Part shown: positions 1,377 through 48,611 of the stretch, in pieces | Layout of the letters: the number at the start of each line of letters is the position of its first letter | How positions within the stretch are numbered: the first letter of the stretch is position 1 | Origin: Octopus vulgaris | Lineage: Eukaryota | Reading direction: 5' to 3' | DNA length: 64,000 nucleotides | NCBI GenBank assembly: GCA_951406725.2 | Contig: OX597843.1 | Location: 15,438,001 to 15,502,000 of the forward strand | Made by a program: the position numbers and the translations under genes | Notes under the pieces: generated by a model | The model's input: only the letters and a program-made list of their open reading frames with translations | Databases searched by the model: none | What the model was told of the DNA's origin: nothing

Positions 1377-1490
1377 TTCTTTGAAAGCATAAGGTAGTCC
1401 GAGTACACCTCCACCGATGAAAGACACGAAGATGTTAGCAATTACACTAAACAGACCCTTTTCTTTGCTCCCTTTCTCTAGGAAAGTCAT
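1377..1490 (-). CDS. First coding exon of an amino-acid transporter (Aa_trans / AAAP family, AVT3/ANT-like); the rest of the gene lies beyond the left window edge
   Basis: ATG at 1490 gives MTFLEKGSKEKGLFSVIANIFVSFIGGGVLGLPYAFKE, followed by a GTAAGT donor (phase 0). The N-x-F-x-S-F-I-G-x-G-V-L-G-L-P-Y-A-F pattern is the TM1 signature of the family. Confidence 0.85.
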
Positions 1491-1779
1491 AGTTAGGCGG
1501 ACGGAGGAAGCCGAAGGTTTGGGAGTCTCCTCTTGTCTCGTCTCTCTGTCTCTCAATCCGGTTCGTGGACCCACAGGCTGTTTTAATTAGCCTCACCAGG
1601 GATCGATCTTAAGTTCACTTCGCTCGCCGCCGCCGCCCGTCCGTCTTCTCCCACCCACCCACCGTCCGTCTTGCCTTTTCGAAAGTTTTTTACTTTTTTA
1701 TTATTATTTTTTGTATGTTTTTGCTCTACTTTTTGTTGATACTTTTTCAAAAGCTTTTCTTTTTTTTCTTTTCTAAAAC

Positions 1780-3651: not shown

Positions 3652-3962
3652 CTAAAAGCAAAGTATGGAAGACAGGAAGGAAGTAATCCTAACCACGTGT
3701 ATCTTTCTTCTATCCTCGTCTACTACAACTTTGCCTCACTTTTACCCCCGTCCCCTTTTCTATGTCTACGGACCCCATTGGTTACTATTATGTTCTGGAT
3801 TTTATTCTCTACTCATTCCACGCTCATAAACTAGCTCCAAGGATACTTTTTTTTCAGTATTCAAACTCGTTATTTACATCTTAATTTGTGTCGGTTCAGC
3901 TAAGTTAAATGTTTAAGAAACTGAGCTGTTTTTCACAATACATCTGAAGCGATTTTGGCAAA

Positions 3963-4683
3963 GTTTCGGTTGTCGTAGCACAAGTTTTCCGTCGATTTCC
4001 GTAAAAAACTTTTATTTTTTTACATAAGTAATGAGAGCGAAAGAGACTAAGAGGAAGCGATTTTATGACGAGGAAGTTTTCTTTGAAGTTACCGTCTAGG
4101 GGAAGCATTGATGTACATGTGTGTGTGTGTGTTTGATGGGGTGTGGGAGACAGACAGTATGTTGTGTAAGTGAAGTGCTTCTGTTAGTGTGTGTGAAGAG
4201 ACAGAGAGTAATGTGTGAAAGAGAGAGATAACTGAAATTTTTTACTCGGTGTATGTGTATATGTATGTATGTGTATGTGTGTGTGTGTATGTATCTATGT
4301 ATGTGTGTGTGTATGTATGTATGGCCGATTCATTGTAATTACGATGAATCGGCCATACATACATACATACACACACATACATATACACATACACCGAGTA
4401 AAACATTTCAGTTATCTCTCTCTTTCACACATTACTCTCTCTGTCTCTTCACACACACTAACAGAAGCACTTCACTTACACAACATACTGTCTGTCTCCC
4501 ACACCCCATCAAACACACACACACACATGTACATCAATGCTTCTCCTAGACGGTAACTTCAAAGAGAAACTTCCTCGTCATAAAATCGCTTCCTCTTAGT
4601 CTCTTTCGCTCTCATTACTTATGTAAAAAAATAAAAGTTTTTTACAGAAATCGACGGAAAACTTGTGCTACGACATGCGAAAC
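3963..4683. mobile_element. ~720-bp foldback (spacerless inverted repeat), MITE-like; adjoining 4690-4775 resembles a hAT-type subterminal end
   Basis: Arms tgtcgtagcacaagttttccgtcg... and ...cgacggaaaacttgtgctacgaca; axis at gtaa|ttac (4338/4339). ggaccc motifs follow the right arm. Confidence 0.75.
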
Positions 4684-5140
4684 ATCGCCGCGATTTTTTA
4701 TGGACCCTTCGCGTGGACCTTAAAATTTTTTATATGGACCCCCAAGGGTCATATTGAGCCCAGTTGATATCCTCTTATTTTAACTACCCCCACCCTTCCT
4801 CTCTTTTTTAGGACGCATTAAACAGTTTCTCAACTACTGCCTTATTCTTACATATGTGTATGCAATATGTAGAAGTACTTAAAAGATTATTGGTTGTGGT
4901 CGGTCAGAGAAGTACCATTGACGATATAAGCGACTCGTCAAACTTGCTGGAGGCACATAATCTCCGGTAAACGAATCTGGCGAGTCATCTGTGCCGCTAA
5001 GAACGTTAGAGGTGCGAAACCAATGGTCACTCACTGACAGCCAGAACCAGCAAACTTTTAAGCATTACTGCTCTAAAGTTTTTTATAATGTGCTTCCTTT
5101 TTTTCTTTGATTTATTAACCCCTGTGTGTGTGTGTGTGCT

Positions 5141-5294: not shown

Positions 5295-5754
5295 AAAAAG
5301 TCAAAATGACGGAACTTTCAGTTATGTATATTTGTCGAATCCAGGTAAAAAAAAAAAAAAGTCACGGAAAAAGTCAGAGGGCTTTTGTTCGGATCCCATA
5401 AATTGATTGTGACTTTTTTTTACTGATTTCATTACCGGTCACCATAACTTAATCGTGACTGTATTACCTGTTACCTATCTCTATCTCTTATGGATGTCAT
5501 CAAACATTTAAAATTATATTACACTCACTCTGAGTGAAACATAAACATTTCTGTCAATATTTGATCGTTTAAACACAATTTTCCCAAAAGTTTACTTTGC
5601 GACTTCAAACTCTCCTAAATCGTTTATTTATTTATTTTCATCATTGATAAACCAAAAATTGTTAATCTATTGCAAACTTTACTAACGACCACACGTTTTG
5701 AGATTCAGGTGTATTTTCAAACTTCAAAACATATTCTCCAATATATATATATAT

Positions 5755-6692
5755 ATCACCTTGATCACCATGACTGACCAGTACATTGGGTGTCCATTTG
5801 ACACTGCTGGTCACAGCACGCTGTCCACTCCTCTCTGGATCGTGCCTTTCTCATCCACCTGGTCCCAATTGCCCTCCTGAAATCATAACTCTACCATCAT
5901 GGAGGCCTTCCGAGTGGTCGCTTTCACTCACACAGGTACCAGTTGACAACTGCGTGGGTCCACTGATTATCAGTGAGCCGGGCAATGTGTCCAGGCCTTC
6001 TAAACTTGCTGCGTGTATACACTGTGATGACATCCCTTATGCCATTAAACGCCTTCCATCTGGCCCTTACTCTCTACAAGATCTCCTTTTTGATATCTCG
6101 GCACATATTCACTTCCTGTCCCAGGTAGACATATTCCTTTACCTCCTCTATTTCATCTCTGCCGATCACCATTCGACCTGTGGGTACGTTGTCTGACTGC
6201 ATGAACTTTGTTTTCATGCGGTTCATCTTGAGACCTACTGCAGAGCTTTTGATGTTGAGCTCCGTCAGCATGGTCTGAAGCTGACCCGTGATTTCAGCGA
6301 TGATGAAATAGAGGAGGTAAAGGAATATGTCTACCTGGAACAGGAAATGAATGTGCCGAGACAATGAAAAGGAGATCTTGTAGAGAGTAAGGGCCAGATG
6401 GAAGGCGTTTAATGGCATAAGGGATGTCATCACAGTGTATACATGCAGCAAGTTTAGAAGGCCTGGACACATTGCCCGGCTCACTGATAATCAGTGGACC
6501 CATGCAGTTGTCAACTGGTACCTGCGTGAGTGAAAGCGACCACTCGGAAGGCCTCCATGACAGTGGAGTTATGATTTTAGGAGGGCGATTGGGACCAGGT
6601 GGATGAGAAAGGCACGATCCAGAGAGGAGTGGACAGCGTGCTGTGACCAGCAGTGTCAAATGGACACCCAATGTACTGGTCAGTCAAGGTGA
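5755..6692. mobile_element. RTE-clade RT 3' fragment duplicated as an inverted repeat, inserted in (TA)n
   Basis: Minus strand reads ...GLKMNRMKTKFM...EIEEVKEYVYLGQEV... (RTE RT C-terminal half). 5755-6160 is the reverse complement of 6298-6692 with scattered mismatches. Confidence 0.85.
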
Positions 6693-6714
6693 TATATACG
6701 TATATATATATGCA

Positions 6715-8786: not shown

Positions 8787-8956
8787 AGATAGATAGATAG
8801 ATAGATCTAATTACCTGAGTATAAGTCACATGATTATACAGAGTGGGGCAAAAATAAGTCAACAGTTAAAATGAAAATACGTACAATACTCATTTATTTT
8901 TATCAACAAAATTAAAAGCTACAATAAAAGTATTATTATGATTAATGATTAACAAG

Positions 8957-11236
8957 GGGAAGCCTTGTATACCACATCAATGGATACTTTCGGCATGAGA
9001 GAAAGGCAAAACCCAGATTGGGTCAATGCTGGGCTCTCAGAGCTGGAGCCAGTTATCGAAGCAAAGCGTGCAGCTCTGATGCAATACAAGAGTGACTCTT
9101 CTACAAAGTCACTCGAAGAACTCAGAAAGGCAAGAAATAAAACCCAACTGACAGCCAGACGCTGTGCAAATAGGTATTGGCAGGAAATCTGTCAGAGTAT
9201 CCAGTCAGCTGCTGACAGGGGCGACACCCGTGGGAAGTATTCCGGTTTGAAGAAGGCCCTCGGTCCATCCGCAACCAAGTCAGCCCCTCTGAAATCAACT
9301 ACTGGAGATCTCATCAGGGATCAAAGCAAGCAAATGGATAGATGGGTGGAGCACTACCAGGATCTCTACTCACGGGAGACTACAGTAGCTGAGGCTGCAA
9401 TCGAGAGTGTCAAGATCTTGCCAGTCATGTGAGAACTTGACAGTCCGCCATCTATAGCAGAGCTCACCAAGGCTATTGACTCCCTAGCAAGTAACAAGGC
9501 TCCGGGAAAAGACGGCATCCCCTCAGAGATCATCAAAGCCGGCAAAAACACCATCCTGCTTCGGCACCTTCATGAGATTCTGTGTCAGTGCTGGGAAGAG
9601 GGTACAGTCCCTCAGGATATGCGGGATGCTAACATCATTACGCTTTACAAAAACAAAGGTGACCGTGGTGATTGTAACAATTACCGTGGAATATCTCTTC
9701 TAAGCACTGTTGGAAAGACCTTTGCTTGCGTTATCCTGGCCAGGCTACAACTACTTGCTTCTCGAATCTATCCGGAATCGCAGTGTGGCTTTAGAAGAAG
9801 CTGATCAACTATTGACATGATATTCTCCATACGCCAACTTCAGAAGTCCAGAGAGCAGAAATGCCATTATATATGGCCTTCATTGATCTGACAAAGGCCT
9901 TTGACTCTGTAAGTAGAAAAGGCCTCTTCATCCTGCTCCAAAAAACAGATGTCCACCAAAGCTGCTGAGGATCATCAAATCTTTCCATGATGATATGCAA
10001 GGCACCATACAACACAATGGATCAACATCAGCCGCCTTCCAAATAAAAAACGGAGTAAAGCAAGGTTGTGTCCTTGTTCCTACATTATTTAGCATCTTCT
10101 TCGTTGCTGCTCTCACATGCCTTTCAGACATCAAATGATGGAGTGTTTCTGCAGAGTAGAAGTGACGGGAGACTGTTCAGTCTCTCGCGCCTGCGTGGCA
10201 AGACCAAAATAAGAAGCGTCCTGATCAAGGAAATGATGCAGCTCTGGTATCACACACAGAAGAAGCCCTACAAAGGCTCATCAGCTGTTGTGAGCAGGCA
10301 TGTAAAGACTTTGGCTTACCTATCAGCCTCAAGAAGACCAACGTCATGGGTCGGGCTACACCGGACATCCCAAACATACATATTGGAGACCACAGATTAC
10401 AGGAGGTGGGGAAGTTTACCTATCTTGGCTCTACCGACACCTACAACCTATCCCTTGATGCTGAGCTCAAAATACGCATTGGCAAGGCATCTGCTGTGAT
10501 GCCCCAACTCTCCAAATGGGCATTGGACAACTATACGCTGACCAAGACCACAAAAATGAAGATCTACCAGGCATGTGTACTTAGCACTCTACTGTATGGA
10601 AGTGAGACTTGGACACTATACACACGCCAAGAGCGTCGCCTAAACATCTTTCACCTGCGCTGCCTCTGGAAAATCCTCCGCATCAAATGGCAGAATCATG
10701 TCCCCAACGAAGATGTCCTCAGCAAGCAGGAATACCAAGCATGTTTGCACTCCTCACACAAAGACGTATGAGATGGCTTGAGCATGTTAGCCGTATGAAA
10801 GATGGCAGAATCCCCAAGGACATACTCTACGGAGAGCTTGCTAGGGGTACTAGGTCTGTGGGTAGACCGTTCTTACGTTATAAGGATGTTTGCAAAAGGG
10901 ACATGAAGGCCTGCAACATCAAAATTAGCGGTTGGGAGGCAGTTGCCGGCAACCGTGGGGAATGGCGATGTACCGTAAAAGAGGGAATACAAAGGAGTGA
11001 CAGAGAGAGAGAGGAGAAATGGAAAGACAAGAAAAGACGTCAACAAGAGACTATGGCATTACAACCAGCCAGGAACAGTCTTCGCTACATTTGCGGTACC
11101 TGCCAGAGGGAGTGTTTGTCCAGGACAGGACTACACAGCCACAGCAGGAAATGTATCAGGACATGAAATGTAAAAGCCGGACTGGACTACTTTATGCGCA
11201 ACTCCATTTTCTCCCGAGACAAAAAGGATGCCAACA
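8957..11236 (+). mobile_element. 5'-truncated RTE/BovB-like LINE, decayed RT ORF with C-terminal C2H2 finger, 19-bp target-site duplication
   Basis: Motifs KAPGKDGIP, YKNKGDRGDCNNYRGISLLS, PESQCGFR, AFIDLTKAFDSV, GVKQGCVL, LLYGSETW, CGTCQRECLSRTGLHSHSRKC across frameshifts. TSD atgattaatgattaacaag at 8938-8956 and 11237-11255. Confidence 0.95.
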
Positions 11237-12152
11237 ATGATTAATGATTAACAAGCAGTACTTATTCTATCAATCTCTTTTGCCGAACCACTAAGTTAAA
11301 GGGATGTAAACATATCAGCATCGGTTGTCAAACGGGGACAGTGGACAAACACAGACATATATATATATAATATACGATGGGCTTCTTTCTATGTAATATA
11401 TGATGGGCTACTTTTTCTAGCAGGTCGTGCAATCACAACCTATGTTGCTGTAAAAACACCTCTGGTTATTAAAGAAGGGTTTTGTTAGGGGAGTGGACCC
11501 AGAAGTTGTTGTTCACAAACAGCAGCAGTAATTTTCTTCAGCTGAATACACGTCATTGATTGGTTTAAATTACCCAAATACGACAACTTTAACACAAAAT
11601 AACTTCTAAAATACAAAATTTTGTCAAAAACGTTAAGAGTAAACTTTGTTTTACCAGTTTCCAAAGTTTCAAAGTGTTTAGTTAAAAAAAAATTATTTAA
11701 AAAATCTGTCGGACAGATTGAAAAGTTCCAAGAAATAAAAAGAGAGAAAAGGAAGAGAAAATGTGAGGTAAAGCAGTGTAGATGGAGGGGAAGGGTCGAT
11801 GGTCCACTTACCCCAGGACAAGTGGGGTACTCAGCCACGCCTCATGGTAATAACTGTGGTGTGCTGCTGAGAACTGCCACTCCACCTGGCAGGACTCGTT
11901 TATCCCTATTTTGAGGTGGAAAACTTTGTGGTCCAAAAACTCATGCCATGGCAACGGCAACCAGCACAAATGCACAGCAGCCAGCCAACCAGACCCCAGT
12001 TATGAACTCATTTGCATACAGCCAATCTAATTTATGAGTGCATAACAAGTGATGGGCGATAAGATAAGGTCCCTTGGGTAAGGGATGACCATGTTTCTTT
12101 TCTCTGTTAAGAATATTTGTTGTTCTTGTTCTTGTTTCAACCATGGTGTTTC

Positions 12153-12563
12153 TTATCTCTTTATTACCCACAAGGGGCTAAACACAGAGGGGACAAACAA
12201 AGACAGACAAAGGGATTAAGTTGATTATATCCACCCCAATGTGTAACTGGTACTTATTTAATCGACCCCAAAAGGATGAAAGGCAAAGTCCACCTCGGCG
12301 GAATTTGAACTCAGAACATAACGGCAGACGAAATACCTATTTCCTTACTACCCACAAGGGGCTAAACACAGAGGGGACAAACAAAGACAGACAAAGGGAT
12401 TAAGTTGATTATATCCACCCCAATGTGTAACTGGTACTTATTTAATCGACCCCAAAAGGATGAAAGGCAAAGTCGACCTCGGCGGAATTTGAACTCAGAA
12501 CATAACGGCAGACGAAATACTGCTAAGCATTTCGTGCTAACGTTTCTGCCAGCTCTCCGCCTT
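12153..12563 (-). mobile_element. SINE family A, dimeric (internal 3' duplication)
   Basis: Two copies of cccacaaggggctaaacacagag...gaatttgaactcagaac, ending in the reverse complement of the aggcggagagctggcag head. Confidence 0.85.
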
Positions 12564-24499: not shown

Positions 24500-25125
24500 T
24501 TTCAAAAGTTGGCACAAGGCCAGCAATTTTGTGTGTAAGCAAAGTCCATTACATCAACGCCCGTACTCAACTGGTACTCATTTTATTGACTCCAAAAGAA
24601 TGAAAGGCAGATTCGACATCGGGGAAATTTGAACTCTGAAAGTGAAGACAGATGAATGGTTGTGAGCATTTTACCCAGCATGCTAACGATTCTGCCAGAT
24701 GGAAGTCTGACAATAATATAATATATACTACAAAAGAGCGGTGAGCTGGCGGAACCGTTAGCAGGCCGGGCGGATTGCTTAGTAGTATTTCGTCTGCCGT
24801 TACGTTCTGAGATCAAATTCCGCCAAGTCGACTTTGCCTTTCATCCTTTCGGGGTCGATAAATTAAGTACCAGTTACGCACTGGGGTCGATATAATCGAC
24901 TTAATCCGTTTGTCTGTCCTCGTTTGTCCTCTCTGTGTTTTGCCCCTTGTGGGTAGTAAAGAAATAGGTATTTCGTCTGCCGCTCCGTTCTGAGTTCAAA
25001 TGCCGCCGAGGTCGACTTTGCCTTTCATCCTTTCGGGGTTGATAAATTAAGTACCAGTTGCGTACTGAGGTCGATTTAATCGACTGTCCCTCCCCCAAAA
25101 TATCGGGCATTCTGCCTAGAGTACA
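24500..25125. mobile_element. Two divergently oriented family A SINEs (- 24500-24700; + dimeric 24737-25125)
   Basis: gcggtgagctggcggaaccgttagc head plus a duplicated core on the + strand; reverse-complement copy upstream. Confidence 0.8.
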
Positions 25126-25834
25126 AAAAATATATACTACAAAAAATATCCCATCTCCATTGACAGTTGTACTTGTTCTAAGGAACATAAAAGTTTTTTG
25201 CATTGAATTTTTTTTACATAAGGGCTGCCGGTATTTAAGAAATCTCTTGGTAATCAACGAATCCTGCGTTCAGCCTCACTGCTCAGCACCTTGATTAAAT
25301 AGATTTCTAACACTGACGGTCGATAAATTGGTCTGTAATCCGCTTGTGATTAAAAAGGTGTATATATATATATAAGTGTGTGCACGCGAGTCCCGTGTGT
25401 GTATGTGTTTGTGTTTATGAGTTTGTATGTGTGTGTGCGAGTGTGTGTGCGTGTGTTTGCGTGTGTGTGAATGTGTGTGTCTTTGTGTCTGTCTGTAAGC
25501 GTGTAGTGTGGACGCATAGCCAAGCGGTCAGGGTGTTGTAACATGGAAATAAAAATACACTCAAGTTTTCAGTCTTTGCTTTCGTGCATGTGTGTGTGTG
25601 TGTGTATGTGTGTACGTGCGTGTATGTGTGTGCGTGTGTGTGTGTCATGACTCTTCATAGGCACAACAAAATTTGATTCAACACACGAATTCACATTAAA
25701 AATCTGGCAAACTAAATAAAGTCTATACATGTTCGGGCTGAATCTGATAATTTGCATAAAAAGAAAGACAACACGATGTCTTGTCCAAAAACAAAACTAT
25801 TCTTAAAAACTCAAAAAAATATCCACCAGTTTAT

Positions 25835-28997: not shown

Positions 28998-29520
28998 TCT
29001 TATTTCTTTATAGCCCACAAGAAGCCAAACATAGAACAGGGGACAAACAAGAACAGACAAATGGATTAAGTCGCTTACATCGACCCAAGAGGATGAAAGG
29101 CAGTGCATAACTGATACTTATTTAATCGACTCCGAAAAGGAGATGAAAGGCAAAGTCGACCTCGGCGGAATTTGAACTCAGAACGTAACGGCAGGCGAAC
29201 ACACAAATGGAAAGTCGATTACATCGACTCCAGTGCGTAACTGTTACAGAATATATCGACCCCAAGAGGATGAAAACAAGTCGACGGCGGAATTTGAACT
29301 AGAACGTAACGGCAGGGATTAAGTCGATTACATCGACTCCAGTGCGTAACTGTTACAGAATATATCGACCCCAAGAGGATGAAAGGCAAAGTCGACCTCG
29401 GCGGAATTTGAATTTTGATTACATCGACTCCAGTGCGTAAACGAATATATCGACGACAGACGAAATACTGCTAAGCATTTCGCCTGGCGTGCTAACGTTT
29501 CTGCCAGCTCGCCGCCTTCT
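28998..29520 (-). mobile_element. Family A SINE with multiple internal partial duplications
   Basis: Repeated aagtcgattacatcgactccagtgcgtaac / ggcggaatttgaa segments, ending gccagctcgccgcctt. Confidence 0.8.
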
Positions 29521-30437: not shown

Positions 30438-30690
30438 TATTCCTGAAACGTTTTGTAACAAGCATACATACAAAAAACCAAATACACCCGTGTACTCCCT
30501 TTGCTACACACAATTACACATGATAATGTATTTAGCTGAAGCATGCACAAACTTTTTATATTTTTCTGATGAAGCAAATGATCAGAAAAATAATGCAGTA
30601 TGAATGTATACTCTAATTATTGTTATATTGTTCATCTTTTTTATGTGGTTGATATATATATATATATATATATGTACATATATATATATA

Positions 30691-31448
<758 letters not shown>

Positions 31449-32679: not shown

Positions 32680-32718
<39 letters not shown>

Positions 32719-32741
32719 TTTCATAACGTTTTCAAATAGCC

Positions 32742-32804
32742 AGATAACCGAAGAGATGGTGTTGTGGATTTCCACTTCGGCATCTGAAACTCAGAGTTTT
32801 ATCT
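32742..32804 (+). ncRNA. Degenerate type I hammerhead ribozyme motif (core CCGAAGA)
   Basis: Helix I agataa/ttatct, helix II gatg/catc, GAAA, helix III ctc-a-gag, GUU site; U4->C core change. Confidence 0.5.
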
Positions 32805-32833
32805 TGACTACCGAGTAATGTAACATATTGTAT

Positions 32834-32880
<47 letters not shown>

Positions 32881-32915
32881 TTATTAAGTGATTATTGTAT
32901 TATTCTAGTTTATTT

Positions 32916-33023
32916 TAACCTGATGGGTGGCAATATTCATATCGAAGTGATTTTACTACTACTATTATTAAATTTTTTTACTATAATCATTTCTTAAATA
33001 TGGTCACGAAACACGTGTCGTTA
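32916..33023 (+). ncRNA. Type I hammerhead ribozyme motif (core CTGATGG variant)
   Basis: Helix I taac/gtta, helix II gtggc/gtcac, GAAA, palindromic helix III cacgtg, GUC site at 33017-33019. Confidence 0.6.
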
Positions 33024-33170
33024 TTCTACCAAATATATACGTTTCTATTATTTTTTTGCAATTTACTTAATCTTCGGTATATTATTGTTATTTTAATTTT
33101 AAAATTTCTATTATATGTAATTTTCTAGATGGTGTAATTTAATTGTTCATTTTGAATTGATAAAAGGTGT

Positions 33171-33228
<58 letters not shown>

Positions 33229-35352: not shown

Positions 35353-37138
35353 AAATAGCAGTAGCAGCAGCAGTTGCTGTTGTAAATAAATAGTTTGGAC
35401 GTGCTGGCTGATTTGAGAACCATGTGCCATGAAGTGTTAGAAACACATATGGAGAGCGATATTCTCTTACGCTATCAAAAATATTAAAAATATCGGACAT
35501 TTTCGAAATATTATCCCCCTTGAGGCAAGCCAGGCATGACTTTAACACCGATCTATTAATGATTTCGCTCGAAAGTGGTTCACCATGAACTTTCCATGAT
35601 ATAATAGGAAAGAAATACTTTCCGACTGAGATATGTGCAAATTATGGACATGTATAACAGCGACATACAAGAAGTCGTTCAAAGAGGTAGATGCTGATTA
35701 AAGAAGGTTGAAATGAGTTTGATTTTCTGGATAAGAAATGCTTAATTTGGGAAAAAATTTGAGCTGGTCATTTATGAGAATGTAACTGAGAATCAAAAGT
35801 CTTGGTCAATATCACCAGAAATAACAATTTGTAAAGACTTTTATATTTATATATGACCCATGATACTGATACAGACTCGAATCGCAACTCGCAATTCAAA
35901 CGTCAACATACTGCCTACCCCTCTATTATCTCCCTTTTCACTACAATACCAGGAATCCTTCGGAAAATTCCAAGGACCGCGACAGATAAAATTAGCACTA
36001 GGCTTTCAAAGAATAACTCCTGGGATCGATTTCTTCGACTAACACTCTTCAAGGTGGTGCTCCAGCGTGGCCACAGTGAAGTGCCTGTAACAAGTAAAAA
36101 TGCGTCTGTCAGACCTAAACGCACAATGTAATAGCACGCCTTTCATGCAAGTCTGAGGAAGTTCCTCTCCAATGCCTAAAACCGCAAATATTACGTAATT
36201 TTTCTTTTAGAAGTTTAGAACTGGCGATGCAAATGGAAATGTTACGGAAACATTTGTAACTTATAATTAAAGACTATTACAGGCTTTTCTTTCTCTTCTT
36301 GTTTTCATTGGATTCCGATGGACTCTCAGGTCGTTAGACGACGTATGACGGTTCGACAATTTCTTACCGAACAACGGGAGCCACACGTCAGATGTCGAAA
36401 TGACCGTAGAGCAAGGTGAAATGAAATGCGTTGCTCAAGAACACAACGCCCAAGAACAATCGATCTGAGAATCGATACCACGATCTCACAATCGTGAGTG
36501 CAACACCCTAACCACTAAGCCATGCGCCTTCATTGGATTATATATATACATACTTTGTTCCTCTTGTATATCTCTTAGACATTGGTTAAAGCGTATAAGC
36601 TGTGTGTGTATCTATCGATCCTAATTCAAAAATTAACATGATCACTTCAAACAAAATGAAATTCTGCTGAGGAAAATTATTTGCAGCATTAAATAATTTT
36701 CTTGTTTGAATTAAAGCAAGTACTGGAATTGTGTGAATTATTCTGCCCAGTAGAGTCTGCATCTTCTACTTCTATACAAAATTAGAAGAAAACATTTTTG
36801 CCCTTGGTTAATTGGTATAATTAAAAAGAAAATGAGCAAAGACAAACATTCCGTAGGGACAAGAAACGGAAAAGCGTAAAATAAAATGCTGATTTATTGA
36901 AATTATCCAAGCTTTGAGAAAATGTAAATAAATAGTTGTATGTATGAGAGAGAGAGAGAGAGAGAGAGGGAGAGTCTGTGTGCATGTGTGTGTTCATGCG
37001 CGCGCGTGCGTGCGTGTCCTATGGTATCATCCACTGTGGTTGATGATGATGACAACGACGAAGAGGATGGTAATGGTGATTGATGAAGCTAATTATGACG
37101 GTAATGGTGATAAAATTAATAAGAAACACGATACTTAC

Positions 37139-37293
37139 GTTCATCAAGCAATTTCAAGTGAAGTTTCTGAACTCCTATGTTAAGCAATGCCTGGGATTTG
37201 TTCAAAACTTGGGAGATATTGCGCCGCAGTTGACTTTCAGTCATTTCGCTAAATACTGTACAGTAAATAGCAAATATTTTAATTCTGTTTGAG
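37139..37293 (-). CDS. aGPCR exon: SEA-like region, C-terminal part
   Basis: tttcag|SNRIKIFAIYCTVFSEMTESQLRRNISQVLNKSQALLNIGVQKLHLKLLDE|gtaagt; phase 2 to 1. The domain label is an inference. Confidence 0.85.
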
Positions 37294-37372
37294 CTGAAAT
37301 AATAATAAATACATACATGTACGTCGGTATGTATATGTGTATGTAGATAGCTAGCTAGCTAGATACATACAT

Positions 37373-37427
<55 letters not shown>

Positions 37428-37433
<6 letters not shown>

Positions 37434-37640
37434 ATGTGACCTCGTGTGTACCGTTTGCGATTTTGTTTCCTCCGTCTTCCCTTTTCTGGAACTTTCCTTT
37501 TCCTATGTTTCTGACGAAGAGCTCCGCTCGAAACGTAAAACCCTCCTTCTTCCCTTCCTTCCTGAACCTCCAATAATAATATATTTGTTCCACGTCCTCG
37601 CGTTGTTGTGTTTTCTCTTTGTGTTTTCATGTTTGGATGA

Positions 37641-37645
<5 letters not shown>
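37428..37645 (+). mobile_element. Short (TA)n-inserted element carrying a minimal hammerhead (37507-37541); inverted sister copy at 45510-45710
   Basis: gttt-CTGACGA-a-gagc-tcc-gctc-GAAA-cg-TA-aaac. The sister copy has core CCGACGA. Confidence 0.7.
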
Positions 37646-37691
<46 letters not shown>

Positions 37692-38089
37692 TCGTTTAAA
37701 AGCCGCCCTGTCGATCCTTGGGCCCAACAATGACACTTCATGCATTGAGTACATATTAAATCTTTTTAAACTTGACCGATATTTTTCAAGCAATGAACAA
37801 CTTATTGCAAAGTTGCAGGATAAACAACATCTTTTGTCTTCCCGTTCAGGGGTCAATGCAATATTTTCTGTCTAACCTCCTTCTTTCTCTCTCTCCCTCT
37901 TTCTCTTTCTGTTGACTATCACCAGCGCCACTACCGTTGCTACCTCAACTGCCATACACACATCATTCAGACTTCTGACGCCACCACCATCAATATATTT
38001 GACTTCGTCACTTTCCCCTCCACCACCATCACCACAGTCTTTCACATCGCTTTCTTTCACTGACTGCCCCGGCTACCGCCACCACCACC

Positions 38090-38554
<465 letters not shown>

Positions 38555-39369
38555 AGGGATGTGGAGGGATTTCTTTTGAATTTTAAATGTCTTTTACCAT
38601 TTATTTAGTTAGTTCTTTACCATTGTATAGCCACTGGCATGAGACATGAGTTCAAGGGTGGTGGCCTCTTTTAGGTTGGGGAAAATAATGAAAAACAGGA
38701 TGCGGTGCGGTCACCACTAAAACGATAGTATTCAGTATGTCAGCTGCAGGAATTTCCGTCAAAGAGACAAAGTTAAACAAAGCTGTACTTCTTCTCCCTC
38801 TTTCTCTCTCTTTTGTTATTACTCCCACTGCCACCATCAACATTACTACTTTTAATAAAACATCAACGCTCCCTAAATTTCTTTGTCTCTCTCTCTCTCT
38901 CCCTCTCTTTTTATTTCTCTCTCTGTCTTCACCATCGCCCTCACCGTCTCTATGTCTACTATTACTCTCACTGTTTCATGAGGAATAGTAGGAGTGTCAT
39001 TGAATAGTGAGAGAGGGGTCTAAGTGTGACACACTGACACACAGAAATTAGTTTTCGCAATTATTATATTATATATATACTTATATGATTAGTTAAAACA
39101 AAAATCACCGGAATTTTTGTAGACCAAGTTAATCTAACTGGTTTAAAGATAATTTTGTTCTAATACCAGTAATCTAAATTGCACCTTTTCAATAAAACTG
39201 ACCATTGACTGACCAGTTAAACTTCCATTTACCGTTAATGGATTCCAATGTATCAATACTGATGCGTATAAAACATAATTCCATCACTTTAGTATGGCTG
39301 CTATCATATCCTTGTTAATTAAGGCGGCAAAGTGGCAGAGACGTTAGCCCGCCGGGCGAAATACTTCGT

Positions 39370-39740
39370 GGAGACGCAATGGCTCAATAGTTAGGGCAGC
39401 TGACTCGTGATCATAGGATCACGGTTTCGATTCCCAGACCGGGTGTTGTGAGTGTTTACTGAACGAAAACACCTAAAGCTCCTCGAGGTTCCGGCAGTGG
39501 GTGTTGGTGAGCACTGCTGTACTCTTTCAACACAAATTTCTCACTTCCGGTTTTTGTTGTATTTGTATTTCAAAGGGCCAGCCTTGACACACACTGAATC
39601 TTGCTGAATCTCCCCGAGAACTACATTAAGAGTACACATGTCTGTGGGGTGCTCAGCCACTTGCAAATTAATTTCACGAGCAGGATGTTCCGTTGATTGG
39701 ATCAACTGGAACCCTCATCGTCGTAACCGACGGAGTGCCA
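39370..39740 (+). mobile_element. tRNA-derived SINE, family C
   Basis: tRNA-like head gcaatggctcaatagttagggcagc...ggtttcgattccc followed by an unrelated body. Confidence 0.65.
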
Positions 39741-39924
39741 TAAAATATACATATAGATTTCACAAATGACATCCAAAGACTCTCTCTATAGAAGACTAAT
39801 AGTGCTAAAAAAAATCAAACATGGGCTCCGGTGTCTATAGAGGGGGATTTTTTCACAAGGTAAAGAAAGGCTTAAAGAGGAATCAAGTTGATTGGATAAA
39901 CAAATTAGACTCACCAAATATATT

Positions 39925-40318
39925 CTTTTCTACTCTAGGCACAAGGCACGAAATTTTGGGGAGGAGCTAGTCGATTACATCGACCCCATTGTTTAACTGG
40001 TACTTAATTTATCGATCCCCGAAAGGATGAAAGGAAAAGTCGACCCCGGCGGAATTTGAACTCAGAATGTAAAGACATGAAATACTAATTTCTTTACTAC
40101 CCAAAAGGGGCTAAACACAGAGGGGACGAACAAGAACAGACAAACGGATTAAGTCGATTATTTCGACCCCATTGCGTAACTGGTACTTACTTAATCGACC
40201 TTGAAAGGATGAAAGGCAAAGTCTACCTCGGCGGAATTTGAACTCAGAACGTAACGGCAGACGAAATACCACGAGGCAGTTCGCCCGACGTGCTAACGAT
40301 TGAGCCAGTTCGCCGCCC
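39925..40318 (-). mobile_element. Family A SINE, dimeric
   Basis: Same core as 12153-12563. Confidence 0.8.
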
Positions 40319-40773
40319 TGACACATCAAATATGTGAAATATATTCAATACATTAAATACAAAATATGAATATATGTATACACGTGAAACGAGGGAGAGC
40401 AAAATATATTTGTATTAAAGTAAAGAATGCCATCGAAGACAGAATATTAGGTAATATTTTTTATCTGATTTTGAAAACTTCAATAAATTAATTTTTTGTT
40501 TCAATTATTTTTAGATTCAAATATAGCTCAGGATTGGATTATCATAGGATTATCATAAGATTCAAATATAGCTCGGGATTGGATTATCATAGCTAAAATA
40601 TAGGGCATTCAGTATGGTTGAAAACAGAATTAGTGAAGAAGGCTAGAACTACAAGCGGGTTAATAAAAGTTGGCCTTAAAAATATATTCGTCCAGTACCG
40701 TGGCTTGCCCTCTTTAGCATGTAAGAAATCCACATGGTAGGATTCTCAACGTATATAAACTTTTATACACACT

Positions 40774-40821
<48 letters not shown>

Positions 40822-40827
<6 letters not shown>

Positions 40828-42003
40828 TTATAAATGAGGGGGAAAAATTGATATTAATTTAATGATACCATTAATTTAACACCGAGTGGCTTAGCACAAA
40901 AAACTACGGAGAAAATACAAATTTATACATTAATTATTAGATCGTTACCACTATGTAGATAACTCTAGTGCTAAAAATAGCTCCGATAGTATAGCCACAG
41001 TAAAAGATGTTTCTAATTAGAAATAACATACATTTACCGGAAGGAAAGTGAAATATAACGAATAAATAGATTGACCCTGAACAAATTGTTTCATTACTAA
41101 TGTAATATGTAATTTTACTTACATAAACATCTATAAATCATCAGCAGAGGTTTGTCTTAAATACAATTTATTAGACCAACACAAGCATTTTTAGTTATGC
41201 CTCAAATTCCCCGCCAAAAGCATGCTAAGACTCTTTGGAAACGTATGCTGCATCAAATAAAATATTTACTGCTGCATAATTAAATTTATAAATTTATAAA
41301 TGAGGGTGAAAAATTGATATTAATTTAATAATACCATTAATTTAACACCAAGTGGCTTAGCACAAAAAACTACGGAGAAAATACAAATTTATACATTAAT
41401 TATTAGATAGTTACCACTATGTGGATAGCTCTAGTGCTAAAAATAGCTCCGATAGTATAGCCACAGAAAAAGATGTTTTCAATTAGAAATAACATACATT
41501 TAACGGAAGGAAAGTGAAATATAACGAATAAATAGTTTTTTTTTGTGCTAAGCCACTCGGTGTTAAATTAATCGTATTATTAAATTAATATCAATTTTTC
41601 ACCCTCATTTATAAATTTATAAATTTAATTATGCGGCAGTAAATATTTTATTTGATGCAGCATACGTTTCCAAAGAGTCTTAGCATGCTTTTGGCGGGGA
41701 ATTTGAGGCATAACTAAAAATGCAATTGGTTAAACCGCACGTGTTTTTGACGCTCGTGTTGGTCTAATAAATTGTATTTAAGACAAACCTCTGCTGATGA
41801 TTTATAGATGTTTATGTAAGTAAAATTACATATTACATTAGTAATGAAACAATTTGTTCAGGGTCAATCTATTTATTCGTTATATTTCACTTTCCTTCCG
41901 TTAAATGTATGTTATTTCTAATTGGAAACATCTTATTCTGTGGCTATACTATCGGAGCTATTTTTAGCACTTGAGCTATCCGCATAGTGGTAACGATCTA
42001 ATA

Positions 42004-42006
<3 letters not shown>
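40822..42006. mobile_element. Foldback element 1: ~1.5 tandem 466-nt units plus an inverted permuted unit; degenerate hammerhead on each strand
   Basis: tgaggg..aaaaattgatatt at 40835 and 41301; 41540-42005 is the reverse complement. ctg-CTGATGA...GAAAcaatttgTTcag at about 41789-41863 (+) and about 41075-41149 (-). Confidence 0.8.
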
Positions 42007-42066
<60 letters not shown>

Positions 42067-42068
<2 letters not shown>

Positions 42069-42600
42069 AATTAAGGACTGAACACGAAAAGTGGACAGTC
42101 AACATGCTAGATATAGACGTCAAATCGCCCTTCTCCACAAAACGTCTATGTTCTCAGATCAAACTCAACACCAAACCAAAACAATAAACAAGTGAAAAAT
42201 ATACGAAATAAATATTTACCCATGTACTAAATTTAGTTTCGGCTGTTATTTTCCGCAAGGAAAAGTGCAGCCATCATCAGCATGCTGATGATGGCTGCAC
42301 TTTTCCTTGCGGAAAATAACAGCCGAAACTAAATTTAGTACATGGGTAAATATTTATTTCGTATATTTTTCACTTGTTTATTGTTTTGGTTTGGTGTTGA
42401 GTTTGATCTGAGAACATAGACGTTTTGTGGAGAAGGGCGATTTGACGTCTATATCTAGCATGTTGACTGTCCACTTTTCGTGTTCAGTCCTTAATTGGTA
42501 TATATAAATATTTTAATCTTCGGATTCTTTCTTTAATATGCTAGACCACTGGTTCTAATTGATAAATATCAATTTTTACCCTTAATTTAATTTTATAAAA
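42067..42600. mobile_element. Foldback element 2: perfect 432-bp palindrome (42067-42498) with a hammerhead starting at the axis
   Basis: 216-bp arms with no spacer, axis ca|tg at 42282/42283. Confidence 0.9.
42281..42344 (+). ncRNA. Type I hammerhead ribozyme motif (mirror copy on - strand at 42221-42284)
   Basis: catg-CTGATGA-t-ggctg...cagcc-GAAA-ctaaatttag-TA-catg; predicted cleavage after GUA at 42340. Confidence 0.75.
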
Positions 42601-42621
42601 ATTATATATATATATATATAT

Positions 42622-43637
42622 ATTAACAATTAAGGAACGGCCATAATAGGCCATTCACCCACTAGAAATAACAGCCAAAGCTTCTACCGCAAATAAAGAT
42701 CAACTCCGTAAACAGGAGAAAATTAAAAAAAACATTTACCCTGTAATTTCTTGTACGGTATACCGTTTCATCTGCTGTTTAATGGTAAACTAACCTGATT
42801 AAATTAAATCAAGCCAATCTTCCATAAGCCCTCAGATTCTTCAGCAAGAAATAGCTCAAGTCGGAACAGATATTTACACGAGGCATCTCAGAACCTTGCC
42901 AAGGCAATATCTGACCTAAAATTTTCAAATCGTCGCAACTCGCGCCAAATTTATCGGCAGCAAATAAGCCGTCGATTCCATTACGGAATTAACCAAGAAA
43001 TTCATAATTAATCAATATAGGGTGCCAAGAAAAATTTTGTAGAATTTTTTTGCCACCAGCGGCCTAGTGGGAAAAAATTAAATAGTCATAGACCATTTTT
43101 AAGTTCAACATTAACAATTAAGGAACGGCCATAATAGGCCATTCACCCACTAGAAATAACAGCCAAAGCTTCTACCGCAAATAAAGATCAACTCCGTAAA
43201 CAGGAGAAAATTAAATCGTCGCGAGTTGCGACGATTTGAAAATTTTAGGTCAGATATTGCCTTGGCAAGGTTCGAGATGCCTCGTGTAAATATCTGTTCC
43301 GACTTGAGCTATTTCTTGCTGAAGAATCTGAGGGCTTATGGAAGATTGGCTTGATTTAATTTAATCAGGTTAGTTTACCATTAAACAGCAGATGAAACGG
43401 TATACCGTACAAGAAATTACAGGGTAAATGTTTTTTTAATTTTCTCCTGTTTACGGAGTTGATCTTTATTTGCGGTAGAAGCTTTGGCTGTTATTTCTAG
43501 TGGGTGAATGGCCTATTATGGCCGTTCCTTAATTGTTAATGTTGAACTTAAAAATGGTCTATGACTATTTAATTTTTCCCACTAGGCCGCTGGTGGCAAA
43601 AAAATTCTACAAAATTTTTCTTGGCACCCTATATTGA

Positions 43638-43645
<8 letters not shown>
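42622..43645. mobile_element. Foldback element 3: 488-nt unit plus ~105-nt repeat of its start plus an inverted permuted unit
   Basis: attaacaattaaggaacggcc at 42622 and 43110; 43220-43645 is the reverse complement and reads through the unit junction. Confidence 0.85.
43311..43417 (+). ncRNA. Type I hammerhead ribozyme, intact core (mirror copy on - strand at 42746-42852)
   Basis: 8-bp helix I atttcttg/caagaaat, CTGAAGA, helix II atctg/cagat, GAAA, palindromic helix III cggtataccg, GUA cleavage after 43409. Confidence 0.85.
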
Positions 43646-43668
<23 letters not shown>

Positions 43669-43678
43669 CATACATATA

Positions 43679-44960
43679 CGGGGGACGCTCAATAAGTAAT
43701 GCCCCGTACCCATTTGAAATTGTTTGATCTAGCTGAAATTTTGCATGTGCAATTATCCATATCTCTACAGATTAAGTAGTAAATTACAGCTCTGTACTAA
43801 TTGTGGTCTCTGATTTACAGATGTTTGAACTGAGTCAAGTGTGAAATGGAGCCTGTTGAGTGTCGAGCAGTGATCCAGGTTTTGTATTTGAAAGGACGCA
43901 CACCACGGGAGACTTTTGATGAAATGAAAGTAACTTTTGGTGATGATGCCCCATCATATGATCTTGTAAAACGCTGGCATCATGAATTCAAACATGGTCG
44001 GAACTCTGTGGAAACAGCTCCCAGATCTGGTCGCCCCCTTCTGCCATTGATGAGGCATTTGTCCGTCAAGTTGAGGCTGCCATTTTGGAAGATCGACGCA
44101 TAACTATTCGCCAAATAGCCCATGAGGTCAAGATTAGTACCGGGTCTGTGGAAACTATCATTCATGACCATTTGCATATGCAAAAGGTGTCTGCCAGATG
44201 GATTCCCAGGTTGCTCACACCTTTCCAGAAGCAAGAACGCGTCGAGGGCTCGAGGATGAATTTGGAGATGTGCCAAGAAGATGAGTCAAAATTTTTCAAA
44301 AGACTGATTACACAGGATGAAATCTGGGTCCATCACTATGAACCAGAGACCAAAGCCTAGTCAATGCAGTGGAAGCACCGTGACTCACCTCCTCCAAAGA
44401 AGGCAAGGGTGCAGCCCTCCGCTGGCAAGGTCATGCTCACAGTCTTCTGGGACCAGGACGGAGTAGTGATGACAGATTTCCTGGCCAAGGGTACCACAAT
44501 TGCAGGAGCCTATTATGCTTCACTTTTGAGGAAATTAAGAGAAGCTATCAAAATCAAGAGGCGGGGCAAGATCAGCAAAGGCATCCTCCTCCTTCAGGAC
44601 AACGCTCCGGTCCACAACTCGCGTGTCGCCAGATCAGAAGTACAGGCGTGCGGCTATGAACTCCGCCCCCATCACCCTACTCTCCTGACCTTGCACACTC
44701 TCATTTTCACCTCTTCCCAGCCATGAAGTTGTTTTTGAAAATAAAGCGTTTCCCAGATGATGCAGCCTTGATTTCTGAAGTCACGTCGTGGTTGGAGGAC
44801 CAAGCTGGGGTCTTCTACAAAATCAGTCTCCAGAGCGGCATCAAACGATGGGAGAAATGCGTAACTCTGGGTGTAGAAAAGGACTAATAACTGTGCCAAG
44901 TTTCGTTGCTCTACTGTAAAGGGAAGTGTGTCAGGGGCATTACTTATTGAACGCCCCTCG
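43679..44960 (+). mobile_element. Full-length (~1.28 kb) mariner DNA transposon with a disrupted transposase
   Basis: TIRs cgggggacgctcaataagtaatgcccc / ggggcattacttattgaacgcccctcg with TA on both sides. HTH (VKRWHHEFK..RSGRP), TQDEIWV and LLQDNAPVH motifs and a degenerate YSPDL motif; stop at 44358-44360 plus frameshifts. Confidence 0.95.
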
Positions 44961-44977
44961 TACATATATATATATAA

Positions 44978-45017
<40 letters not shown>

Positions 45018-45059
45018 ACATACATATACATACATATACATATATATACATATGCATAG

Positions 45060-45111
<52 letters not shown>

Positions 45112-45253
45112 ATGCGTGTGTATATATAAATTAAGGTAGCTATCAGGAATTTAGAACCAACACGAAAGTTAATTTGCAGTCACTGGATATCTGTTACATG
45201 ATGACGCTTAATTGTGTGCATATGCAGCTATAACACTTTCAAACATTGGAAAT

Positions 45254-45312
45254 ATTATACGGAAGAGAGGAGTAAAATTTAAATTATTTTAATCTCGAAA
45301 CGCGTATATAAT
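45254..45312 (+). ncRNA. Degenerate hammerhead motif (core CGGAAGA) in a (TA)n-flanked element, 45128-45475
   Basis: attata/tataat helix I, gagg/tctc helix II, GAAA-cgcg-TA. Confidence 0.45.
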
Positions 45313-45472
45313 TAATCCAGGTCGTGTTGATTCATTATTCTGCTCTTTGCCTTCGTAAAAAAAGTATGTTTACCGTCATGGAGATTCTTAGTGTAGCGGA
45401 AAAGGAATTTTAACTCCTATTTCTAATTTCGGTATGTGTTGAAGCAGTTAGCTGAACCCTAATTATAATTAC

Positions 45473-45513
<41 letters not shown>

Positions 45514-45969
45514 ATCCAAACATGAAAGCACAAAAATACACAACGCGAGGACGTGGAACAAATATAGTATTATTGGACGCCCAGGAAAGAAGGAAAGAAG
45601 GAAGGTTTAACGTTTCGAGCGGAGTTCTTCGTCGGAAACATAGAAGGAAAGATCCAGAGAAGGGAAGACAGAGAAATAAAAATCACCAACGGTACACACG
45701 CGGTCACGTTTTGCATGCAAATATGTATATATATATATATACATGTGTGTGTATGTGTGTGTGTGTTTGTGTGTCTGTGTTTGTCTCCCAAGCATTGCTG
45801 GTGTGTTTACTCCCCGTCACTTAGCGGTTCGGCAAAAGAGACCGATAGAATAAGTACTGGGCTTACAAAGAATAAGTCCCGGAGTCGATTTGCTCGATTA
45901 AAGGTGGTGCTCCAGCATGGCCGCAGTCAAATGACTGAAACAAGTAAAAGAGAGACAAAAGTGAGAGAG

Positions 45970-46034
<65 letters not shown>

Positions 46035-47001
46035 CCTGGTTGGTTTTAAAATGTGTGTTAGCTACCTTCAATATTTTATAATCTTCACATTGCCATTTTG
46101 TGAAATCAATCCCTAATTCCTATGGCATTCTCAATGATACTGAGAGGCGTGAGTTAGCCTCCACCAGCCGTAATGGAGTGAGCATTGCTGATGAGTATTA
46201 ACTTCCTATAAGAGATTACCATGCTAATCTAATCCATCTGGCTTACCGTGGGGAATGTTCTCCCCACTGTCAGTGCAAACAGACCATATGTCTTTTTGTG
46301 GCTCAGGAGTCTATGACTAATATTTCTAATAATGCTGGTGCTCACTGCACTCTTTTCACACTTAGTGACTGTGAATTATTTCCTTGTTGGTTTCAAATTG
46401 CCGATAGCCACCACAATTTATATATATATACACACCCATATATGTGTGTGTATATATATATGTGTGTATATATATATGTGTGATGTATATGTATGTATAT
46501 ATATATACATATATATATATACAGCAATTTAATAAATAAAACATATGCATACATACATACATATATGTACATACCTACATCTATACGTATATATACATAT
46601 ATATATATGATTACAGGACACCACAAAAAAGCGTAGAACACAACGAGAAAAGAAGACAAAAAATCAAACAAGGAAACAGACTTTTTCCAACAACGAAAAA
46701 CAGGACAAACAATACAAGGAAATTCCCTTCTTCAGCTGGCCCTGTTTCGACTCAATGCGTATTTTTATATATATATATATATATACAGTTCTCTCTGTAT
46801 CTTTATATGGGTTTGTGTGTCCTTTGTATAATAAAACATGGATAAAACACTTAAACATTTCATTGAATGTATGAATTAATATATTCTGGGTCACAAGTAC
46901 AACACTGTTGATTATTGTGACGTATAATACATGCGATAAAATCGAATGTTTGGAACAAAAGCAAATAAATTTGAATAAATGTGTTAGAAGCATTTGCTTA
47001 C

Positions 47002-47054
47002 CCACAGTCTTCAACTCTAAATGTTCCCGTCACGGTTGAAAGGTCATGCTCAAT
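47002..47054 (-). CDS. aGPCR exon (SEA-like region)
   Basis: tttcag|IEHDLSTVTGTFRVEDC(G)|gtaagc; phase 0 to 2 fits both neighbours. Confidence 0.8.
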
Positions 47055-47177: not shown

Positions 47178-47490
47178 ATAATTTTATTCTGAAACGCAGG
47201 ATAATGCTAATGATATAACGTGAACCGCATGAAATATCCATAATTTGCAGATAAATCTGTCGTCAGCCAGCTATGTGACTACACCTCACACCCCTGTGAT
47301 TACGCTTCAAGTGCTTTACCATTAAGCTAAACTGCGCGAACGACAAATACTTCTGCAAAGTTAGGCTATATACATCTAGCTTTATAAGACGCGTAATCTG
47401 GCCGCCGACAGAGTTTTCGGCAACAGGTGAATACGTTATCCTGTTTATGCTATACTATTAGCATTATCCTGCGTTTGAGAATATAATTAT
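47178..47490. mobile_element. MITE-like element with ~30-bp terminal inverted repeats and an internal tRNA-like segment
   Basis: attctgaaacgcaggataatgctaat / attagcattatcctgcgtttgagaat; minus strand tagcttaatggtaaagcacttg at about 47310-47330. Confidence 0.55.
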
Positions 47491-48141: not shown

Positions 48142-48548
48142 CTATGGATTGATATAGAAAATAATCGCTGCGTTTATAAATGAGACACACGTCATAGATG
48201 CACATAAAACCCACATACGTAGATAAAAATATACATTCATAATCACATATACACTTAAAATACTATATATATATATATATTATTCTTATTCTACCTATTA
48301 TATACGTTTTTATTATTATTATTATTTGCAATTTACTTAAGCATTGACATTTAATTGTTATTTATTTTTTATATTTCTATTATATGTAATTTTCTAGATG
48401 GTGTAATTTAATTGTTCATTTTGAATTGATAAAAGTTTTTTTTTTATTTTAATTTTTATATATATATCTTATATTGTGTGAAATTTGATTTAGTATTTCT
48501 AAATTTAATTTTTCCCTTGTAAGTTTGGATTTTATTCACTCAAATAAT

Positions 48549-48611
<63 letters not shown>

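Follow-up and report, generated by a model that had tools for sequence, protein, structure and literature searches.

Three adjacent head-to-head elements in an intron of Octopus vulgaris appear to be insertions of non-autonomous PLE-like elements, and the mechanism that we favour for them is double target-primed reverse transcription from a linear RNA template (probability of the whole mechanism about 0.55). That the elements are PLE-related and non-autonomous is, taken alone, very probable: we regard them as a protein-free derivative or parasite of a PLE, similar to a retrozyme. The helper acting in trans was probably a TA-targeting PLE of the Hydra clade. The elements, numbered 1 to 3 from left to right, lie in a window of 64,000 nucleotides, the whole stretch of DNA that was analysed (Table 1). 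They are only distantly related to one another; each sits between (TA)n tracts, with flanks of pure (TA)n, and its outer ends share a few AT bases with the tract.

Table 1 Features of the cluster and of its host intron, in window positions.
Feature	Positions	Strand	Remarks
Host intron	37296..47000	-	ADGRG6-like adhesion-GPCR gene; flanking exon matches 47001-47054 and 37137-37295
(TA)n tract, left edge of the cluster	40777..40824	.	further tracts at 42007-42066, 42603-42623 and 43643-43668
Element 1	40826..42009	.	related, more diverged family; 466-nt period
Element 1, right-arm-only segment	41724..41753	+	30 nt
Element 1, hammerhead motif	41789..41863	+	minus-strand mirror copy, predicted cut after 41080
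Element 2	42066..42605	.	related family; left arm ends at site A, right arm has the tail to site B
Element 2, hammerhead motif	42281..42344	+	minus-strand mirror copy, predicted cut after 42225
Element 3	42622..43645	.	head-to-head, non-coding, hammerhead-bearing, PLE-like insertion; (TA)n tract on either side
Element 3, left arm, full 488-nt unit	42622..43109	-	RNA sense is the minus strand; outer end is site A
Element 3, hammerhead motif, left arm	42746..42852	-	predicted cut after 42754
Element 3, left arm, second partial copy	43110..43215	-	106 nt, identical; ends 26 nt short of the second predicted cut
Element 3, centre junction	43213..43237	.	10-bp hairpin
Element 3, right (inverted) arm	43220..43645	+	from about unit position 333, across the unit junction; outer end is site B
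Element 3, type I hammerhead motif, right arm	43311..43417	+	predicted cut after 43409 (GUA)
Element 3, hairpin	43506..43527	+	ends 13 nt upstream of site A
Element 3, tail, site A to site B	43541..43645	+	105 nt; at the outer end of one arm only

Element 3 is built on a 488-nt unit which, as the initial annotation had claimed, starts at 42622 and restarts at 43110: 42622-42727 and 43110-43215 are identical at 106/106 positions, at a spacing of 488 nt. The inverted arm was said to begin mid-unit and to read through the junction of unit end and start, and it does. Aligned to the doubled unit, it runs unbroken from position ~333 over 1/488 to 383, with three single-base indels (blast blocks 43220-43540 against 42944-42622 and 43435-43645 against 43215-43004). 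The two outer ends of the element are 105 nt apart in the unit. On the left arm, position 1 of the unit abuts target DNA; this position, 42622, is not a monomer end, lying 131-132 nt downstream of the predicted cut site. The unit has a GC content of 0.365, that of element 1 a content of 0.288. A hairpin likewise precedes site A in elements 1 and 2, in the equivalent position though different in sequence, which is weak support.

Element 1 had been assigned the same geometry with a 466-nt period, and this is confirmed: 40810-41072 recurs at 41276-41538 with a spacing of 466 nt and 94% identity, the direct copies measure ~245 nt, and the inverted arm again crosses the unit junction. Here the long left arm ends at site B and the inverted right arm at site A. 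Element 2 is a perfect 229-bp palindrome followed by ~95 further nt at its right. In element 1 it is the long arm that ends at site B, in element 3 the short inverted one, so the type of end is independent of arm length.

One arm ends at A and the other at B in 3/3 elements, with B ~100-110 nt beyond A; under random pairing, the chance of this is 0.125. The predicted cut is separated from site A by 131 nt in element 3, ~156-164 nt in element 2 and 148 nt in element 1, and from site B by 236, 265 and 256 nt, respectively. The tail measures 105 nt in element 3, ~108 nt in element 1 and ~101-109 nt in element 2. The three elements are homologous over the stretch between cut site and site B (z of 5.8, 4.6 and 3.0, with 0, 0 and 3 of 500 shuffles as good), and the reverse-complement controls are not significant (z of -0.1 to 1.4). 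Upstream of the ribozyme, homology between elements 1 and 3 is undetectable (109/500 shuffles as good). A consensus structure across the three families holds only 12 weak pairs, and local hairpin z-scores are significant in 1/8 segments only. Three different families stand side by side in 40777-43668 with only (TA)n between them, although the window has 34 TA runs of at least 12 nt; an insertion hot spot, local hopping or a common donor locus might account for this.

The initial annotation placed one hammerhead in each unit, which we find in the form of one predicted type I motif per arm, with the predicted cleavage triplets that it had named: GUA in elements 2 and 3, GUU in element 1. All six arms copy an uncut motif and no arm has two. 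The motif defines the sense strand, so that the arms diverge from the centre and have their 3' ends at the TA tracts. In element 3, helix I is of 8 bp, helix II of 5 bp with a long hairpin loop, and helix III is a 12-nt palindrome; the MFE structure is the hammerhead itself (z -4.83, 0/200 shuffles). The motif of element 2 has an extra U after the core and a 12-nt palindromic helix III, and its region folds with z -2.36 (4/200 shuffles) and a partly different helix I. That of element 1 has a 4-bp helix III with a 1-nt loop and a weak helix II that requires a one-base offset; its fold is weak (z -0.95).

Under strict criteria for a type I hammerhead, a scan of the 64-kb window on either strand returned four matches, which are the mirror pairs of elements 2 and 3; a relaxed scan added the pair of element 1 and three other sites. 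The scan recovered the native 488-nt unit of element 3, as a positive control, and matched 0/2000 of its shuffles. Rfam reports no hammerhead at the gathering score (0 matches of any family), and none of the 16 matches at E up to 10 belongs to a hammerhead family. The top Rfam matches, to miRNA precursors, were rejected: they only reflect the palindrome.

Elsewhere in the window, hammerhead-like motifs occur in two other settings. Two TA-flanked solo repeats of ~215 nt, at 37430-37640 (plus strand) and 45500-45725 (minus strand), are 86% identical; the former carries a minimal motif (core at 37511) with no real helix III and represents another PLE-like family. A TA-flanked fragment at 32718-32837 has a motif (core at 32748) with a Hydra-type 4-bp helix III and a 1-nt loop. 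The TA-bounded, AT-rich fragments at 32875-33179, 48280-48554 and 46600-46766, of which the first two share sequence by eye, are possibly 3' ends of other PLE families.

The host intron was placed by mapping Octopus adhesion-GPCR G6-like proteins, to which the exon near the cluster is up to 92% identical. Exon matches to this ADGRG6-like gene extend across most of the window (17418-60120, minus strand), and a short amino-acid-transporter-like exon lies near its left end (1143-1586, minus strand). The cluster itself contains no ORF of at least 120 aa, and no stop-to-stop frame exceeds 67 aa when the doubled units of elements 1 and 3 are read in six frames. Having no ORF for a reverse transcriptase plus GIY-YIG endonuclease, the elements are not autonomous PLEs. 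A Pfam scan of 8 protein stretches from 7 of the 65 listed ORFs of the window recognised no ORF of a helper PLE, nor did the window reveal a source locus that carries two ribozymes in tandem. A stretch upstream of the element 3 ribozyme that resembles, by eye, the Pol III A/B boxes was rejected: it is followed by T runs of 4-7 and has no counterpart in element 1.

In elements 1 and 3 the unit junction is crossed by both arms, which set out from different outer ends; this supports reverse transcription of an RNA template longer than one unit. Of the circular or tandem RNA template suggested in the initial annotation, this part stands; as to its form, a linear, ribozyme-cut RNA is favoured at about twice the odds of a circular one, because no arm has two ribozymes and both long arms end before the second predicted cut. 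They stop 26 nt (+27) short of it in element 3 and 10 nt (+11) in element 1. The chance of both stops is 0.003-0.004 when counted as 2/2, and 0.03 as at least 2 of 5 stops, a rough and post hoc estimate. Run-off at a ribozyme-cut 5' end with flap trimming would explain where the long arms end, and a circle gives no obvious reason for it; the stops could instead reflect the start of transcription or stalling of the reverse transcriptase.

A circular template is rather unlikely. Monomers cut by the ribozyme would be ligated to circles of 466-488 nt, on which the PLE reverse transcriptase would prime at A and B and continue by strand displacement beyond the point where it began; this course shares double priming with ours and differs only in the template. 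Such circles have been demonstrated for the non-LTR retrozymes of coral, mussel and axolotl (PMC7229834), and circular templates for more-than-unit PLE copies were already proposed in 2014 (PMC4209133); the accessible text of the literature examined holds no demonstration of them for PLEs. A circle would account for the junction being read through from both start sites, for one ribozyme per period and for the 106/106 identity of the two copies in element 3. Folded as a circle, the monomer has a strong structure (element 3 z -5.7, element 1 z -3.0; 0/60 shuffles each), but the linear form is just as stable (z -5.6 and -3.2), and the comparison does not tell the two templates apart. Apart from the position of the long-arm stops, no arm makes a dimer, and the divergence within element 1 differs from what a twice-read circle predicts: its direct copies differ at 11/247 sites (one lies at the centre junction), and its arms at 2/219 in the unique part. 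With two junction-adjacent sites dropped, the triplicated 220 nt hold 14 substitutions and the 219 nt of the unique part 2 (Fisher p 0.036). Together with the 30-nt indel, these differences mildly favour copying from different template units; neutral decay with gene conversion may account for them instead.

The sequence itself displays the unit, the read-through of its junction, the ribozyme motif, two fixed outer ends, the TA target and the centre junctions. For the linear template, we propose that a tandem or partial-tandem source locus would be transcribed with incomplete hammerhead cleavage, giving an RNA whose 5' end lies at one cut site and which extends through the next, uncut ribozyme to at least 236-265 nt beyond. 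A PLE reverse transcriptase-endonuclease acting in trans would cut both strands of a (TA)n tract, and each cut end would prime cDNA internally on an RNA, site A being used by one end and site B by the other. The cDNAs would extend toward each other and end by 5' truncation or by run-off at the ribozyme-cut 5' end. Their 3' ends would then be joined by microhomology, with flap trimming or snap-back insertion, leaving a head-to-head palindrome with the tail on one side. This mechanism rests on three elements and two long arms, with a stop statistic chosen after the data were seen.

The centres of the palindromes have the pattern expected where two free 3' ends undergo snap-back synthesis and are joined by microhomology, if our reading of them is right. 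The hairpin at the centre of element 3 consists of 3 nt common to the left arm, 4 inserted nt and 3 pre-existing bp, and the inserted nucleotides are complementary to the right arm, as in snap-back (chance ~1 in 256). In element 1, a 3-nt microhomology (41533-41535) is followed by a lengthened T run. The palindrome of element 2 is centred on the self-complementary strand of helix I, a 4-mer at 42281-42284. Snap-back combined with microhomology joining is polymerase-theta-like. Double priming also resembles L1 twin priming, in which both target strands prime cDNA and an inverted structure with a microhomology join results. There, however, one RNA supplies both cDNAs with largely non-overlapping templates, whereas the octopus cDNAs would copy the same region from fixed internal sites, and no poly(A) is present.

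The properties of a purified PLE protein agree with such a course: it cleaves and extends both strands, starts reverse transcription at two fixed internal sites, one at either boundary of the tail, and uses uncleaved RNA, as a predicted dimer (Frangieh et al., PMC11167929). Counting against our model, none of the RNA-seq reads of the anole PLE in the same work ended at the ribozyme cut site. Fixed ends in all genomic copies had been put down in the initial annotation, together with a lack of junction-spanning RNA, as grounds for abandoning the RNA template; that was mis-set, since internal priming by a PLE predicts fixed outer ends A and B.

The annotation had also invoked a strand switch. As a fold-back on the DNA present, it cannot yield the inverted arm of element 3: this arm requires the antisense template 383-488-1-333, and simple fold-back is excluded because the left arm is contiguous only to position 106. 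Element 3 thus derives either from two separately primed cDNAs or from a longer precursor trimmed exactly to site A. The latter course, quite improbable in our estimate, has one long cDNA primed at B fold back and be copied, after which the endonuclease trims one end to A. It directly accounts for the perfect palindrome of element 2 and for the near identity of the arms of element 3; endonuclease resolution and self-priming have been proposed for PLE tails and palindromes (PMC8557442, PMC3846280). For element 3, however, it needs the longer precursor and a long arm trimmed by exactly 105 nt, and in element 1 the trimming would be on the inverted arm. The insertion at the centre of element 3 is templated from the right arm, so two switches would be required. 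In element 1, the stretch of the inverted arm from site A to the ribozyme matches copy 1, from which it should then derive, at only 3/8 discriminating sites (one at the centre junction), and the arm carries the 30-nt indel. Two cDNAs primed separately on opposite target strands are simpler and fit better.

A DNA-level origin, as a foldback element, a MITE or a palindrome made by repair, with the ribozyme incidental, is very improbable. Long inverted repeats, TA flanks and other palindromes in the window agree with it; yet the inverted repeats do not match at the very ends, which are offset by ~105 nt, unlike those of a MITE or foldback transposon, the ribozyme and its downstream landmarks are kept across three divergent families, and the arms have fixed 3' ends and 5' truncations that vary in position. 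A fold-back chimera of sequencing or assembly, which the perfect 229 bp of element 2 and the three single-base indels between the arms of element 3 might suggest, can practically be dismissed: the palindromes end at TA tracts, all three elements share homology in the one-sided tail, and the arms of element 1 differ by substitutions as well as the 30-nt indel.

Partial tandems, inverted 5'-truncated copies and a one-sided tail of 30-40 bp are typical of PLEs (Craig et al., PMC8557442), and in Adineta Penelope elements form head-to-head palindromic junctions for which self-priming was proposed (PMC3846280). Opposite-strand ribozyme pairs 100-700 bp apart have also been described (Cervera and De la Pena, PMC4209133). 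Like EN+ PLEs, elements 3 and 1 contain a partial tandem (pLTR), absent in element 2; an inverted 5'-truncated head-to-head copy and a tail at one end are each found in 3/3 elements. A palindrome or microhomology at the inverted junction, an AT-rich target and a sense-strand type I hammerhead upstream of the reverse transcription start sites, here as motif and fold only, complete the likeness. Unlike EN+ PLEs, the octopus elements have no ORF, a period of 466-488 nt instead of kilobases, and a tail of ~100-110 nt against the published length.

The Hydra clade of PLEs targets (TA)n and includes Hydra-1_Obim of Octopus bimaculoides (PMC8557442); its hammerheads have a 4-bp, long near-palindromic helix III (PMC8557442 supplement). 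With this clade the elements share the (TA)n target and the Octopus host, although (TA)n is also used by octopus Naiads and so is not diagnostic alone. They further share a near-palindromic helix III (4-bp; compared by eye) and a hammerhead a short way upstream of the 3' end, and Penelope-13_HM of the Hydra clade has an inverted 5' copy, as here. They differ from the clade in the 12-nt helix III palindrome of elements 2 and 3 and in encoding no protein. The 3' flank listed for the ribozyme of Hydra-1_Obim differs by eye, and no sequence link to the clade was found; six motifs of the window have 0 matches in the accessible supplement of Craig et al. (PMC8557442), where line breaks can hide matches.

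Metazoan non-LTR retrozymes offer a second comparison: they too have a non-coding unit with one type I hammerhead, a GC content below 45%, a structured monomer and a proposed mobilisation by PLEs. Their arrangement is in head-to-tail dimers or arrays, against head-to-head arms of 1.2-1.5 units here, and the octopus unit is longer than the typical ~300 bp. Unlike an active retrozyme, this locus has one ribozyme per arm in 6/6 arms and no two consecutive units. Retrozymes have been linked to pLTRs, and those of Xenopus are reported to be excluded from introns (Li et al., bioRxiv 10.64898/2026.07.22.740005), whereas the octopus elements are intronic. The plant LTR retrozyme differs from them by a type III hammerhead in direct LTRs, against type I in an inverted arrangement.

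Other repeats of the window were noted in passing. A mariner-type transposon adjoins element 3 (43679-44960); it is flanked by TA, has terminal inverted repeats, and its transposase (Pfam Transposase_1, E 3e-23) is broken. A large imperfect palindrome (88%) with microsatellites lies at 3957-4689, where the hammerhead scans found no motif, and an old inverted repeat, whose 93-nt arms match at 76%, close to a TA run at 47178-47490. A LINE reverse-transcriptase-like fragment, RTE-like by eye and with no Pfam match, is present as an inverted duplicate (94%) at 5745-6157 and 6302-6711, from a TA run. Degenerate LINE reverse-transcriptase ORF fragments occupy 8950-11170, with a weak RVT_1 match and 32% identity to the C-terminal part of two annotated GPCR proteins. 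An abundant SINE-like repeat with an internal tandem duplication of ~182 nt recurs at 39920-40320, 24735-25135, 12150-12560 and 29000-29500. The start of a TA-bounded segment at 30690-31089 resembles a Helitron 5' end.

The class of element and the circle hypothesis are already in print; new are the long tail in octopus and the footprints of the mechanism (n = 2-3). In a repeat survey of Octopus vulgaris there are 190 Penelope-like families, of which 31 were recently active; its accessible main text leaves ribozymes unmentioned (PMC13282606). Our literature search, with Repbase and most subscription journals outside it, returned no description of the octopus families, of a ~105-nt tail or of stops at a second cut; the octopus family may already be catalogued.

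How PLE tandem and inverted repeats and the one-sided tail are formed is stated as unresolved in the field (PMC8557442, PMC11167929). Short, young, non-coding copies display both arms within ~1 kb and make a test bed for PLE integration: genome-wide, their outer ends (A or B) and inner stops would separate the circular, the linear ribozyme-cut and the fold-back models.

On the host strand, predicted folding pairs the ribozyme with the other arm at 99/99, 70/70 and at least 46/60 nucleotides, in helices of 151-215 bp. Such a duplex, sequestering the ribozyme, may explain why the elements are tolerated in an intron. Cephalopods edit their RNA heavily from A to I, and the duplexes would supply substrates for RNA editing or for small RNAs.

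A wider reading, which we offer tentatively and hold to be rather unlikely as a whole, joins these points. Octopus would harbour a widespread superfamily of ribozyme RNAs of ~470-490 nt, possibly circles, always integrated by a dimeric PLE enzyme whose two subunits would prime on opposite target strands, one at A and the other at B, with 105 nt between them; the palindrome would mask its own ribozyme in the host pre-mRNA, so that copies would persist in introns and give rise to long double-stranded RNA. If this were true, young copies would settle how PLE inverted repeats and tails are formed, and whether the template is circular.
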